Shown here piece after piece: positions 5,343 through 16,468 of a stretch of DNA of 25,666 bases. The stretch lies in IMG/VR virus record IMGVR_UViG_3300017978_000037, positions 1-25,666 of that record. One strand, written 5' to 3'. The translations under genes were made by a program, and so were the position numbers. The DNA comes from a virus (taxonomy: Duplodnaviria > Caudoviricetes). Within the stretch, counting starts at the first letter, position 1, and each line of letters starts with the position of its first letter. The notes below the pieces were generated by a model. It was not told the DNA's origin. It worked only from the letters and a program-made list of their open reading frames with translations, and did not search any database.

Positions 5343-5543
5343 TTAAGACAGTAAGGCTTTGCAGAGTGCATCAGCTTCTTGCGAGTCGATAGCCGTGGTG
5401 AGCGCTTCTAGGTAAGCACTATACTGTGGGTGGCTAGGTTGCAGGTTCACACCGCCTGCTGTTCCGCCCTTTGAATGAACAACAATCCCCGCTTTAGGAT
5501 GATTAAAAGCGGTGTAGTTGGCGGATGTTTTGAAGAGTTGCAT
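5343..5543 (-). CDS. first early gene, hypothetical
   Basis: 66 aa, AAGGA SD, about 30 nt downstream of the predicted sigma54 start. Confidence 0.75.
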   Translation of the reverse strand: MQLFKTSANYTAFNHPKAGIVVHSKGGTAGGVNLQPSHPQYSAYLEALTTAIDSQEADALCKALLS

Positions 5544-5584
5544 GATTTGATCCTTAAATGATGCGTTGAAGATACAGTCTACTT

Positions 5585-5600
5585 AGCAGATACCGTGCCA
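5585..5600 (-). promoter_or_regulatory. sigma54 (-24/-12) promoter facing the early arm
   Basis: Minus strand TGGCACGGTATCTGCT versus consensus TGGCACGnnnnTTGCW (one mismatch); exact GG-N10-GC spacing. Confidence 0.75.
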
Positions 5601-5610
5601 GTCTATGTTT

Positions 5611-5689
5611 TGTAATACTCTAGTTTACATTGTAATCTTATAAGCCTTAAATGTAATACTAATATGTACAGTGTTGTACCATTACAACG
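5611..5689. promoter_or_regulatory. phased TGTAAT array and dyads, candidate activator sites
   Basis: TGTAAT at 5611, 5631, 5652; TGT-N13-ACA dyads at 5611-5629 and 5652-5670; GTTGTA-N4-TACAAC at 5673-5688. Confidence 0.5.
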
Positions 5690-5698
5690 CCACATGAA

Positions 5699-5756
5699 CG
5701 CTCCGCTTTAGTGCATGATTCCCTTATGTGGTGCATAGTTGCACCTTGATAGTGCA
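5699..5756. promoter_or_regulatory. three tandem NtrC-like binding sites
   Basis: TGCACCTTGATAGTGCA (5740-5756, full GCAC-N7-GTGC), TTCCCTTATGTGGTGCA (5719-5735), CGCTCCGCTTTAGTGCA (5699-5715); 20-21 bp spacing. Confidence 0.65.
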
Positions 5757-5762
5757 TTGAGT

Positions 5763-5778
5763 TGGCATGGAGTTTGCT
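5763..5778 (+). promoter_or_regulatory. sigma54 (-24/-12) promoter, rightward
   Basis: TGGCATGGAGTTTGCT, one mismatch to TGGCACGnnnnTTGCW. Confidence 0.7.
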
Positions 5779-5829
5779 TGATAGTCTACTGTTTAGGTTA
5801 CGTTATAGCCTGCTACATAGTCCCTCACT

Positions 5830-5866
5830 TGCTTACTTTTTAAGCATATTGCCTATTATTTAAGCA
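5830..5866. promoter_or_regulatory. tandem 17-bp dyads TGCYTA-N5-TAAGCA
   Basis: TGCTTACTTTTTAAGCA (5830-5846, perfect arms) and TGCCTATTATTTAAGCA (5850-5866), 20 bp apart. Confidence 0.6.
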
Positions 5867-5976
5867 CATAGGTGTTACTACGTAGGTATCTAGATAGTAA
5901 GCATACTTACCATTATAGTCTTGATAGGACTTGATAGGGGGGAGGGGGAGAGCTTGTGTGTTTACTTTTGTGGGAG

Positions 5977-6035
5977 CCTCTAAAGCATACAAAAAAGAAT
6001 ATGGGAAAGAGGACCTCTAAAGCACACAAAAAAGA
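5977..6035. repeat. 22-bp direct repeat CCTCTAAAGCAYACAAAAAAGA, period 37
   Basis: 5977-5998 and 6014-6035, 21/22 identical; just downstream of a G6-A-G5 tract (5937-5948). Confidence 0.85.
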
Positions 6036-6264
6036 TCATGGAAGAATAGATACTTAAAGACTAAAAAGCTAATAAAATCAATAGTGTTGCTTAAATACAA
6101 CATAGTAGACTGAATAGATACGTAATGTAGACTCTAATCTGGACACAGGAGCAATGCCATAGTGCTCTTGTGGGCTATGAAAGTGGACACAAGAGGTCTA
6201 TGAAGATAGGTGTAACATTGGAGACAGTACCTATAAAATAAATGTAAATAAATAAAGAAATGTC

Positions 6265-6292
6265 TTGACATTTAAGAAAAGAGGTATACAAT
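6265..6292 (+). promoter_or_regulatory. sigma70-type promoter upstream of structured RNA and terS
   Basis: TTGACA-N16-TACAAT with A-rich UP-like sequence. Confidence 0.65.
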
Positions 6293-6299
6293 GCTCTAT

Positions 6300-6457
6300 G
6301 AAGGTAATCCTTCCAAGAACTCAAATGAAGTCTAAGTAGACAAGCTGCTTAGTTAAATACAAGAAGTTCTTTATGAGTAGTCATTACTGACCTTAGTTTC
6401 ATTGAAGATGAACACAAGAGGTTGTATAAGTAAGTAACTACTTCATTTAGATTCTTG
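6300..6457 (+). ncRNA. candidate structured ncRNA or leader
   Basis: Several nested stems found by eye, starting at the predicted transcription start; G-U pairs favour the plus strand. Confidence 0.45.
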
Positions 6458-6558
6458 CTTTAATGTTAAATGTCTTAGTATCTCTAGAGTACTCATAGTA
6501 GTGGGTATCCCTATTGTTACCCCTTACTATTAATAGTCTATCTCCTTAAAGGACAAAG

Positions 6559-6972
6559 ATGACAACCCCAGAAGAGCCAGTTAAACGTAAGGCAGGAAGA
6601 CCCAAGAAGGGTGAGATAGTAGCCAAGAAGAAAGGCCATAGAGAGTTACGTGGTCGTCCAGCAGGGGACAAAGCTATCATGGATGAGTACAAAGCTAGGA
6701 TGCTTAACTCACCTAAGTCAGCTAGGGTCTTAGAGGCTATCTTCGATGCTGCCTTAGATCCTGAACATAAGGCTCAGTCAGCAGCATGGAAGCTTATAGT
6801 GGACAGGATCGTACCTGTGTCTTCATTTGAACAAGTTAAACAAGGCGGTGGTACTCCTGCTATTAGCATTAACATTACAGGGCTTACTCAAGCTAGTACT
6901 GTTATTGAGCAAGATGATGTCTCGTACGACAGCACGTCTTATGACATCTCGGATGTAGAGGCTAAGGAATGA
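6559..6972 (+). CDS. terminase small subunit (putative)
   Basis: Basic GRP motifs, helical core, ISINITG beta segment, acidic tail; ATGA overlap with terL. Confidence 0.75.
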   Translation: MTTPEEPVKRKAGRPKKGEIVAKKKGHRELRGRPAGDKAIMDEYKARMLNSPKSARVLEAIFDAALDPEHKAQSAAWKLIVDRIVPVSSFEQVKQGGGTPAISINITGLTQASTVIEQDDVSYDSTSYDISDVEAKE

Positions 6973-8243
6973 CCTCATTGAACTTTGAGCTACTGAAGTG
7001 GCAACAAGAGGTCTTCAAGGACACCCATCGCTTTAAAGTGGTTGCAGCAGGTCGTCGCTGTGGTAAGTCTAGGCTCTCCGCAGTGACCCTGCTCATTGAA
7101 GCTCTGAACTGTCCTGAAGGGTCAGCTGTGATGTACATAGCTCCTACCCTCGGACAAGCTAGAACTATTATGTGGGACTTACTGAATGACTTAGGTAGAC
7201 AAGTCATCAAGTCCTCCCATGTAAATAACTTGGAGATTACTCTTGTCAATGGAAGAAAGATCCTTGTTCGAGGGGCTGATAATCCCGATTCTCTTCGTGG
7301 TGTCTCTCTTACTTATGTCGTTCTAGACGAGTGTGCCTTTATTAAGGAAGACGTATGGCAGAAGATCATCCGAGCTTCCTTGTCAGATAAGAAGGGTAGA
7401 GCCTTGTTCATTTCCACTCCTAGTGGACGTAACTGGTTCTACGAGGTCTTCAAGCTAGGACAGGCAGAGGATGAGAGTCCCCAAGGGGACGTAGAGTGGC
7501 AGTCATGGCACTTCACCACTAGAGATAACGAGACTATCGATCCTAAAGAGATTGATGCTGCTGAACGTACTCTAAGCTCCTTTGCCTTCAAACAGGAATA
7601 CTTGTCTTCCTTCGATAACGCTGGACAAGAGGTATTCAAAGAGGAATGGTTAAAGACCTCAGAGGAGCCTCAGTACGGTGAGTACGTAGTAGCCATTGAC
7701 TTAGCTGGCTTCGAGGAAGTAGGTAAGAACCCCGGTGCTGCTAAGTCTAGACTTGATGAATCAGCTATAGCCATTGTCAAGATAGAAGACAACGGTAACT
7801 GGTGGGTCAAGGAGATCATAGCTGGTAGATGGGATATTAAGGCTACAGCAGCTAAGATCCTTAACGTAGTACGTGAGTATAAGCCTATCTCTGTTGGCAT
7901 CGAGAAGGGTGCTTTAAAGAACGCTGTAAGCCCTTACCTCAATGACTTGATGAGGAAGAACAACGTCTACTGTCACATCTCAGACCTGACACACGGTAAC
8001 AGGAAGAAGCAAGACAGGGTTGTCTGGTCTTTACAAGGACGTTTAGAGCATGGTCGTATCTCCTTCAACGAGGAAGAGGATTGGAAGGAAACCTTCGATC
8101 AGATCATGATGTTCCCTACAGCAGGGGTTCATGATGATAGGGTTGATGCTCTGTCTTACATTGACCAGTTAGCTGTCACTAGCTACCAACAAGATTACGA
8201 AGAAGATGATTGGGAACCTCTTGACTCAGTGTCAGGATTTTAA
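6969..8243 (+). CDS. terL: terminase large subunit
   Basis: Walker A AGRRCGKS, Walker B VVLDE, STP coupling motif, RNase H-fold IDLA and HDDRVDA. Confidence 0.97.
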   Translation: MTSLNFELLKWQQEVFKDTHRFKVVAAGRRCGKSRLSAVTLLIEALNCPEGSAVMYIAPTLGQARTIMWDLLNDLGRQVIKSSHVNNLEITLVNGRKILVRGADNPDSLRGVSLTYVVLDECAFIKEDVWQKIIRASLSDKKGRALFISTPSGRNWFYEVFKLGQAEDESPQGDVEWQSWHFTTRDNETIDPKEIDAAERTLSSFAFKQEYLSSFDNAGQEVFKEEWLKTSEEPQYGEYVVAIDLAGFEEVGKNPGAAKSRLDESAIAIVKIEDNGNWWVKEIIAGRWDIKATAAKILNVVREYKPISVGIEKGALKNAVSPYLNDLMRKNNVYCHISDLTHGNRKKQDRVVWSLQGRLEHGRISFNEEEDWKETFDQIMMFPTAGVHDDRVDALSYIDQLAVTSYQQDYEEDDWEPLDSVSGF

Positions 8244-15113: not shown

Positions 15114-15521
15114 ATGGCATACGGTTCAGTTTTAACAGATACAGTGCAGTCAAGCTCTGCTGCCACCGCGCCTGTCTTCAAAGACGGCAACGGCACTCAA
15201 GTGGGTACGCTGTGTCGTGCTTGGGTGAACTTCAACGGTTCAGGCACTGTTGCTATTCGTGCATCGTTTAACGTATCAAGCATTACTGATAACGGTGCAG
15301 GTGACTACACCGTGAACTTCACTACTGCGTTATCTGATACAAATTATGCTGTTATTGGTACAGCGAAATATGTTGCTTCCGCAGAAGGTCAAAATTTCCG
15401 TGTAGGAACTGCGGCGTATGGGACTACTGTGACAACATCTTCAGTAAGAATTAACATTACAAACGGTGGAAACGCTGCGCAAACAGATTCTGAAATGGTC
15501 AACGTGTCAGTCTTCCGTTAA
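15114..15521 (+). CDS. small fibre-associated protein (AWVNFNG..NVSSITDNG domain)
   Basis: Motif; paralog of 16076-16468. Confidence 0.8.
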   Translation: MAYGSVLTDTVQSSSAATAPVFKDGNGTQVGTLCRAWVNFNGSGTVAIRASFNVSSITDNGAGDYTVNFTTALSDTNYAVIGTAKYVASAEGQNFRVGTAAYGTTVTTSSVRINITNGGNAAQTDSEMVNVSVFR

Positions 15522-15534
15522 TAGGTGAACCAAC

Positions 15535-16092
15535 ATGACAACAATTATTAACGCATCCCCTACAAACGGTTTAGTCCAGACTGCCGATGGCTCTGGTGTT
15601 ATGTCCGTTTATTGGTTGCGTTGCGCTGAACATACAGATATGTTTAGCCAAGGGTATGTTGGAATTACTAGGCATGGTCGTGAGAAACGTAGGTTTCGGG
15701 AACACAAGACTGTTGGTCAAAACGCTCACCTACGCAACGCGCTGAACAAATATGAAGTAGTGCAGGAAATCTTGCTGATTGCTGACAAAGACTATTGCAA
15801 AGAGATTGAGCAAAAGTTGCGCCCAGAAGCAAACATTGGTTGGAACATTGTCGCTGGTGGTGGATTACCGCCCAGCTTTAAAGGCAAGAAGCGTTCTGCT
15901 GAGTTTGTTGAGCGTTTGAGGCAACAAGTTCAATCTGCTGAAACCAGAGCAAAGCGTTCTAAATCAATGTTAGGCAATCAAAACGGCGTTGGTCGTAAAT
16001 TAACAGAAGAACAGAAAAAAGCCATATCAATCAGAATGAGCGGCGATAATCATTACAGCAGAAAGAAGGTAAATAATGGCAAGCATAATTAA
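15535..16092 (+). CDS. GIY-YIG homing endonuclease with NUMOD3-like repeats, fused to 22 aa of the host gene
   Basis: SVYW..GYVG, RRFREH, KEIE, GWN catalytic pattern; SAETRAKRSKSMLG and LTEEQKKAIS helices. Confidence 0.88.
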   Translation: MTTIINASPTNGLVQTADGSGVMSVYWLRCAEHTDMFSQGYVGITRHGREKRRFREHKTVGQNAHLRNALNKYEVVQEILLIADKDYCKEIEQKLRPEANIGWNIVAGGGLPPSFKGKKRSAEFVERLRQQVQSAETRAKRSKSMLGNQNGVGRKLTEEQKKAISIRMSGDNHYSRKKVNNGKHN

Positions 16093-16141
16093 CGCCAGCC
16101 CAACTAACGGAATTGTGCAGACCGCTGACGGTAGTGGTGTT
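15601..16141 (+). mobile_element. 541-bp homing element: endonuclease, SD and recoded 5' end of the target gene
   Basis: Removing 15601-16141 restores one in-frame gene; 15535-15600 and 16076-16141 encode 19/22 identical residues. Confidence 0.8.
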
Positions 16142-16468
16142 CTTAAATGTCAAGCAAACGGCGTGACCACCAACGCTTTGGCTTGGGTGAACTTTAACGG
16201 CACTGGCACAGTGGCTATTCGTTCAAGCTACAACGTCAGCTCTATTACTGATAACGGAACTGGTGACTACACGGTTAATTTTGCTACTGCTTTAAGTGAT
16301 GCCAATTATTCAATGACTGCTTCAAGCGGAACACCCGGAACTACTGCTGGCTATATAACGTATAACACAACAACCCCTTCAACAACAGCGTTAAGACTAG
16401 CTGCTGTTAGTTCTTTGGGAACGCTTTTTGATGCTAGTTATGTATCAGTAACAATTCACGGTAATTAA
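16076..16468 (+). CDS. small fibre-associated protein, target of the endonuclease insertion
   Basis: AWVNFNG domain; SD GAAGGT lies inside the endonuclease 3' end. Confidence 0.82.
   Translation: MASIINASPTNGIVQTADGSGVLKCQANGVTTNALAWVNFNGTGTVAIRSSYNVSSITDNGTGDYTVNFATALSDANYSMTASSGTPGTTAGYITYNTTTPSTTALRLAAVSSLGTLFDASYVSVTIHGN

Follow-up and report, generated by a model that had tools for sequence, protein, structure and literature searches.

The early and late genes of an uncultured aquatic phage diverge from a short control region in which two sigma54 promoter elements face outward. A sigma54 promoter is silent until an activator acts, and the question raised by this locus is what turns the early genes on. 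The window, by which we mean the whole 25.7-kb stretch of DNA analysed, derives from a podovirus-like phage of roughly 37–38 kb. Its minus strand up to position 5543 carries a primase/helicase and small early genes (early arm), and its plus strand from 6559 carries terminase, portal, capsid, and tail genes (late arm). An earlier note on this DNA had proposed that host activators, bound to two repeat arrays between the elements, gate early transcription.

Relatives were gathered with the terminase large subunit (TerL; 6969–8243, plus strand) as the anchor. Among the best 80 of 278 loci, 33 with less than 1.5 kb of upstream DNA were excluded and 47 were used. Relatives occur in one lake and one estuary metagenome (X1, X2), and the unpublished genome G094 was counted in genome tallies only. 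DnaA, sigma70, and IHF sites were called by their consensus motifs. No isolated phage matched the window at the DNA level. Because the nearest isolates were distant (TerL, <40%; primase, 47%; capsid, likewise distant; DNA polymerase of G001, 43% to Pelagibacter phage HTVC103P), no host was assignable by homology. A TerL search of genome contigs found nothing, and NinX-like matches, mostly to Pseudomonas and Bordetella phages, gave a weak hint of the host.

The complete relatives additionally encode DNA polymerase A, a class II ribonucleotide reductase, ThyX, and nucleases. Neither an integrase (PF00589) nor an HTH_3 repressor (PF01381) was found in four complete relatives, and the controls were positive; a repressor and an integrase flanking divergent promoters, as in a lambda-like lysis/lysogeny switch, were not detected. 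Among 47 ORFs of G001 and G003 scanned against Pfam, none matched an RNA polymerase. The PF00940 search also gave no match, its controls were likewise silent, and hence it is no proof that an RNA polymerase is absent. Elsewhere in the window, at 15114–16468, a homing-endonuclease-like ORF (15535–16092) lies between two paralogous tail-fibre-like genes.

Two outward-pointing sigma54 elements

The left element (TGGCACGGTATCTGCT; 5585–5600, minus strand) scored 21.7 bits and the right element (TGGCATGGAGTTTGCT; 5763–5778, plus strand) 22.6 bits. The matrix was built independently of the phage from 32 consensus-filtered Burkholderiales elements of glnA and pilin promoters. These were the best two sigma54 scores in the window, the third-best site reaching 11.6 bits, and none of 5000 dinucleotide shuffles of 5544–6558 gave even one such site. 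The pattern TGGCAYRN5TGCW matched seven times in the window and four complete relatives, each time within the promoter slot. Both elements carry GG at -25/-24 and GC at -13/-12 at fixed spacing in a TGGCAC-N-TTGC context. Transcription from sigma54 promoters starts 12 bp after the C and depends on RpoN and an activator; the predicted +1 positions are near 5574 (left) and 5789 (right).

The left element headed the early arm in 28 of the 47 relatives among the best 80 of 278 TerL loci and was lacking in 19. The right element was also present in 6 of these 28, and right-pointing elements alone in 4 of the 19 others. Since this tally uses the sigma54 motif itself, a non-circular retrieval was added with a 21-base pattern that covers the centre of the GTGCA array and neither promoter. 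It returned 24 loci, two of them unrelated, and all 22 remaining phage loci (type A) carried both elements with GG and GC intact. The 22 loci comprise 20 distinct ones with a mean identity of 66%, and some are the same contigs as TerL loci. GG and GC were intact in 21/21 distinct type-A sequences (the window and 20 relatives), while the five bases after TGGCAYR varied (7 left and 11 right variants). Because the GG and GC are kept while the inner bases vary, these results support selection on both elements.

The distance from the left to the right element was 167 bp in 18 and 168 bp in 2 distinct relatives, and 178 bp in the window. The alignment places an 11-bp insertion, one helical turn, at 5698–5708 of the window only, and the GTGCA boxes described below stay on the same helix face. 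A constant length despite sequence drift between the left promoter and the boxes would be expected for a looped enhancer. The coordinates of both elements in the earlier note proved right, and two of the checks that it had proposed, scoring against shuffled intergenic DNA and conservation of GG/GC and spacing in related phages, both came out in favour of the elements.

The left element is intergenic and is followed by a short leader. The first early-arm gene (5343–5543, minus strand) encodes a protein of 66 aa that belongs to no family and gave no usable match in a homology search; its ribosome-binding site (RBS), AAGGA, lies at 5551–5555, and the leader from the predicted +1 is 31 nt long. 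An RBS and ATG were found 26–51 nt past the predicted left +1 in 22 of 27 distinct loci with a left sigma54 element. The left element is likely to be the main early promoter. The RNA data covered were contigs throughout (24 runs, with seven different runs compared with the window); RNA-library contigs of a relative, from X19, cross the promoter region and show neither start nor expression. A second, internal sigma54 element was observed in the early arm 2.8–5.5 kb upstream of TerL in L013, L052, and L068 (minus strand) and L008 (plus strand), and in the window there was none.

NtrC-type boxes and the left promoter

GTGCA half-sites occur at 5711, 5731, and 5752, with spacings of 20 and 21 bp, and all three were kept in 20/20 distinct relatives. 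They are the right halves of 17-bp dyads. The accessible text of PMC8743547 gives the NtrC consensus as a 17-bp dyad, TGCACCAnnnTGGTGCA. An independent control was drawn from 32 Burkholderiaceae glnA loci. In the 12 of these with a sigma54 element, a palindrome search without a seed yielded nGCACCAnnnTGGTGCn. Across the 25.7 kb, this blind motif placed the three boxes at ranks 1, 2, and 4: box 3 (TGCACCTTGATAGTGCA; 5740–5756) scored 16.8 bits (rank 1), box 1 (5699–5715) 13.7 bits (rank 2), and box 2 (5719–5735) 11.3 bits (rank 4). The cluster scored 41.8 bits, the runner-up 19.1 bits, and 0/1000 shuffles gave its equal. The array thus has the make-up of an NtrC enhancer, namely several helically phased copies of a 17-bp dyad.

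Boxes 1, 2, and 3 are centred at -133, -153, and -174 of the left promoter, within the host range and within the 80–200 bp upstream at which activators of sigma54 usually bind. Measured from the right promoter, the same boxes are centred at -82, -62, and -41, which is borderline. Boxes of at least 9 bits were present in 21/27 distinct left-sigma54 loci versus 3/19 loci without a left sigma54 element (Fisher p 6e-5, a value inflated by kinship). The match to the published consensus and to the blind glnA motif supports the GTGCA array as a putative host-type enhancer of the NtrC type, as the earlier note had supposed of a host activator in general. The note had also held that the window encodes no sigma54 activator, and none (PF00158) was found in four complete relatives with positive controls; an unrelated phage activator would escape PF00158.

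We consider it probable that the early arm is started by NtrC of the host or a close paralogue, a protein that is active under nitrogen shortage and that, from the three boxes, would activate the sigma54 holoenzyme at 5585–5600. Nitrogen shortage would place active host NtrC on the boxes at 5699–5756, from which it would loop over 133–174 bp to the left promoter. The left element would then fire as the main early promoter, and infection would start only, or much faster, in nitrogen-limited cells. NtrC is named here from the motif, which other activators could share.

The proposed circuit resembles glnAp2-type NtrC-activated sigma54 promoters (E. coli; Burkholderiaceae glnA), which according to the accessible part of PMC8743547 combine a -24/-12 element with several 17-bp TGCACCAnnnTGGTGCA-type boxes 100–200 bp upstream. 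Some glnA hosts (L469, L499) also have promoter-proximal boxes. Unlike these promoters, the phage region is carried by a virus, has no detected activator, heads an early arm in place of nitrogen genes, shows no IHF consensus, and is joined by a second element that points outward. The IHF consensus occurred between enhancer and left promoter in 4/27 loci against 6.2 expected, and was thus not enriched. An IHF site between enhancer and sigma54 promoter is common, not obligatory.

Several observations concern the candidate hosts. No sigma54 element precedes glnA in low-GC Burkholderiaceae (L470, L473–L477, L483, L484, L491, L498), and about half of the high-GC ones have one. Not every candidate host therefore uses the glnA sigma54 circuit, and low-GC Burkholderiaceae may be excluded as hosts of NtrC-type phages. 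P-II upstream regions contained few sigma54 elements and were left out of the analysis. Loose pattern scans returned mostly chance or coding repeats, with a sigma54 element nearby in 4/121 genome and 7/120 viral loci. L225 was rejected as a host NtrC array since it lies within a reading frame.

The right element and the TGTAAT array

No plus-strand ORF of at least 50 aa occurs between the right element and position 6559. The RNA downstream of the element folds no better than shuffles (z -1.1) and has no Rfam match above the cut-off, so that the element points at neither a gene nor a defined RNA. The late arm has a sigma70 promoter of its own, TTGACA-16-TACAAT (6265–6292, plus strand), which scores 11/12, is matched in 38/49 loci, and precedes the terminase and structural genes. 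The two-way switch that the earlier note had entertained, read as one between early and late transcription, is supported by neither result. We read the right element as an accessory of one subtype, a second holoenzyme site that shares the boxes. Most likely it adjusts the enhancer, through competition or cooperation at box 3, or yields a short non-coding transcript toward the genome-end region.

Paired sigma54 elements are known from bacteria. The divergent pair zraP-zraSR of E. coli shares one activator. In the VnfA1 targets of Azotobacter vinelandii, back-to-back -24/-12 elements flank one set of activator boxes, as described in the accessible text of PMC9542535. The window is like these systems in having two outward elements around one box set. 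It differs in that the boxes are strongly off-centre, at -133 to -174 of the left promoter and at -41 to -82 of the right, and in that the right element is geneless, so that only one of the two elements heads a gene.

A stronger role for the right element is conceivable, although we regard it as rather doubtful: NtrC could drive it as a genuine promoter, with a non-coding transcript that runs through the genome-end region and primes or opens replication or packaging, the task of DnaA boxes in other subtypes. Among the 21 NtrC-type loci, 6 had the right element and no DnaA box, 14 had DnaA boxes and no right element, and 1 had neither, a distribution in favour of this reading. TTGATAG repeats follow the right element, and L051 has a left-pointing element with boxes at -42, -61, and -82, a geometry like that of the right element. 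However, the subtypes stem from a small number of independent lineages, L040 and L048 combine a right element with DnaA boxes (and have sigma70 on the left), 2/21 type-A sequences have a one-mismatch DnaA box, and the effect of box 3, at -41, may be to block and not to activate. This reading is compatible with NtrC-driven firing of the left promoter and differs from it on the right element only.

Several further features were noted in and around this region. In L040, L048, L057, and L058, a left sigma70 promoter is accompanied by right-pointing sigma54 elements, either single or as a tandem with a 41-bp interval; in L057 and L058 their distances to the left of the G-run are 117 and 76 bp. Two to four DnaA boxes (TTATCCACA), often 19–20 bp apart, occur in the early control region of sigma54 and non-sigma54 relatives (L001, L010, and L078, at -59 to -152 of the left +1; L013, L027, L029, L049, and L052; L061, L064, L067, and L069), and none was found in the window. 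An element conserved clade-wide (AATAGGTGCTACATCGCCCTCAC-like; 5805–5828) is shared by sigma54 and sigma70 types, and the G-run GGGGGGAGGGGG (5937–5948, plus strand) is a landmark in nearly all relatives of any promoter type. Both are candidates for a genome-end or packaging signal; contig ends gave no genome-end placement. Tandem imperfect repeats flank the G-run at 5977–6041 (28 bp, 37-bp spacing) and 5829–5868 (20 bp, 20-bp spacing). Past the late sigma70 promoter, a long leader (6293–6400) contains a conserved motif (GAAGGT.ATCCTTCCAAGAACTCAAATGAAG..T..GTAGAC..GCT.CTTAG) with hairpins, also present in L001, L003, L010, L012, L028, L041, L052, L053, and L062. It is possibly a structured RNA or leader element, and the sole Rfam match was weak, below threshold, and on the opposite strand.

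The second array consists of TGTAAT at 5611, 5631, and 5652. The earlier note had described two arrays of the same 20/21-bp phasing; the positions are exact, but the arrays are not equivalent. In contrast to the GTGCA copies, the second TGTAAT copy is poorly conserved (with its G in 10/20 relatives), and the first and third are retained in the form TGTARTAC. Copy 1 forms an imperfect palindrome (TGTAATACTCTAGTTTACA; 5611–5629) at -37 to -55 of the left promoter, with the clade consensus TGTARTACTnnAGTAYTACA, and the third TGTARTAC unit (5652–5670) lies 41 bp from the first. The array always adjoins the left -24, and its presence does not follow that of the right promoter: the half-sites persist in 17/21 relatives without a right element (shuffle mean 2.5, maximum 7). 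They are missing in the other 4/21, and phased DnaA boxes substitute in 3 of these 4. The palindrome was not enriched in Burkholderiales, the one order sampled (9/201 genomes, below the reversed control). HexR, considered as its binder, was rejected; the genome search was negative, and the accessible text of PMC5343134 gives no motif. The TGTAAT array thus belongs to the left promoter and not to the right one, as a candidate operator, bending site, or weak sigma70 promoter.

The last of these options bears on whether the left promoter is a gate. Copies 2 and 3 form a possible weak leftward sigma70 promoter, ATTACA-17-TACAAT (5629–5657, minus strand; 9/12), which could give activator-independent transcription. 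Early genes would then be read from this promoter or from elsewhere, and sigma54 with NtrC would add strong transcription in starved cells or act as a roadblock when the activator is off. The promoter accounts for the 21-bp TGTAAT spacing, the same register is the best match in 12/21 type-A sequences (variants TATAAT, CATAAT, and TATTAT), and unactivated RpoN holoenzyme can repress according to the accessible part of PMC8743547. Nevertheless, the mean sigma70 score of 8.4 compares with a shuffle mean of 7.8 and maximum of 8.4, the shared register may reflect shared ancestry, and the slot promoters of sigma70-type relatives are far better (11–12). We therefore judge a boosting rather than gating role to be unlikely.

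It is improbable that the sites act chiefly as decoys or end-protecting sites, on which sigma54 holoenzyme, NtrC, DnaA, or further host proteins would be titrated or held close to the genome end, with transcription from the sites of little importance. The geneless right element, the right-only or tandem elements without usable boxes (L040, L048, L057, L058), and the DnaA boxes and orphan activator boxes of the region would suit such a role. The left element, however, stands in promoter position before an RBS and replaces a sigma70 promoter, its spacing to the boxes is fixed while the spacer sequence drifts, and two or three sites make a poor sponge. The idea is plausible for the right element only. 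Least probable is the criss-cross arrangement, in which two host activators form a two-way switch, TGTAAT driving the right promoter and GTGCA the left and each protein blocking the near one: the TGTAAT units do lie 120–178 bp upstream of the right +1 and type A keeps both promoters a constant distance apart, but the array persists in loci that lack the right element, its second copy is poorly kept, its palindrome leads to no host regulon in the 201 Burkholderiales genomes, and the right element heads no gene while the late arm has its own promoter.

Activation of the left promoter from the NtrC-type boxes is the reading that we favour. The gate by host activators of the earlier note is supported in part: by the selected elements, the NtrC-type GTGCA array, and the lack of a detected phage activator in four complete relatives, and not with regard to TGTAAT as the enhancer of the right promoter. 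Its proposal that each protein activates the far promoter and sits on the near one fits the geometry of the GTGCA array and lacks support for the TGTAAT array.

Apparent exchange of the promoter module among relatives

The 27 distinct left-sigma54 loci carried three kinds of upstream box: NtrC-type boxes in 21, TGTC-N8-GACA arrays at about -88/-131/-150 in 5, and GGCAAAWWTTGCC boxes 21 bp apart in 1. A strong sigma70 promoter occupied the slot in 7/19 relatives without a left sigma54 element versus 0/25 loci with one. L063 has TGTC-N8-GACA boxes yet no sigma54 element; this locus and the 3/19 loci with NtrC-type boxes but no left sigma54 element indicate that some boxes are not tied to the left promoter.

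A search for tandem TGTC-N8-GACA gave a match in 1/151 Burkholderiales genomes and none in controls; a sigma54 element and then a gene of prepilin type lie downstream of it. Homologues of this gene gave 30 loci, of which 26 had sufficient upstream DNA and 15 a sigma54 element. The box was present in 10 of these 15 (9/14 without the seed; shuffle mean 0.8), compared with 0/12 glnA and 2/24 type IVa pilin regions. Two known motifs were rejected as its equivalent: that of type IVa pilins is TGAC-N6-GTCA, and that of PEP-CTERM genes, as given in the accessible text of PMC1569441, is one base longer. The PEP-CTERM motif was read by eye and with a regular expression; an unseeded search converged on base composition. 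The prepilin-type Burkholderiales family (L572, L603–L632) is itself of note as a set of sigma54 promoters with a TGTC-N8-GACA enhancer; its member in L572 is transcribed away from a neighbouring gene for a sensor-like membrane protein.

In a TerL tree with 48 rows, loss of the left sigma54 element required 4 changes against a shuffled mean of 15.1, and the paired type required 5 changes for 7 rows against 6.7. L001 has a TerL identical to that of the window and a different cassette. From these change counts and from L001, the cassette appears to move by recombination.

A broader proposal, to which we give somewhat less than an even chance, is that in one lytic podovirus clade the slot of the early promoter serves as an exchangeable sensor through which the phage reads the host's condition. 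By replacement of about 200 bp in cis, the start of infection would come to depend on nitrogen limitation (NtrC boxes), a pilin-gene activator (TGTC-N8-GACA boxes), other activators or DnaA, or, with sigma70, no such input. Given that a sigma54 promoter is silent without its activator, such phages would wait in the cell for the signal without a repressor, integrase, or sensor of their own.

Host regulators serve phages elsewhere. The accessible text of PMC9437464 describes CtrA-dependent 'lytic deferment', Spo0A in phi29, and LexA-controlled prophages as ways in which phages read the host state. Those cases modulate ordinary promoters, whereas a promoter of the window's sigma54 type needs its activator to fire at all; unlike in those cases, the input module is exchanged between close relatives. 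Pseudomonas phage YuA, which has no RNA polymerase of its own, has a mapped sigma54-like promoter, P015; in the accessible part of PMC10914365 it is one among many promoters, with no activator or enhancer assigned, and the two phages are unrelated. Our literature search, which covered few subscription journals, found no description of an NtrC enhancer on a phage early promoter. This analysis adds the blind host-motif match, the test of the criss-cross arrangement, and an inventory of the enhancer modules that are exchangeable within one clade.

If the proposed mechanism is true, a lytic phage can tie the start of infection to host nitrogen status with no more than DNA sites, and its close relatives change the input through exchange of a short cassette. 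In aquatic bacteria, lytic infection has long been noted to be delayed or to fail when nutrients are limiting, and the circuit would offer a concrete mechanism for this link that can be tested. The 250-bp region is open to reporter assays in any laboratory strain with rpoN and ntrC mutants and without phage culture. The box types also hint, from sequence, at the identity of the host, and they form a natural collection of compact sigma54 promoters. Five relatives with neither a sigma54 element nor a strong sigma70 promoter (L063, L065, L067, L069, L077) carry CTTAC-N6-CTTAC, a direct repeat with an 11-bp period, close to a weak -10 about 300–480 bp left of the G-run, a layout known for OmpR/PhoB-family activators.
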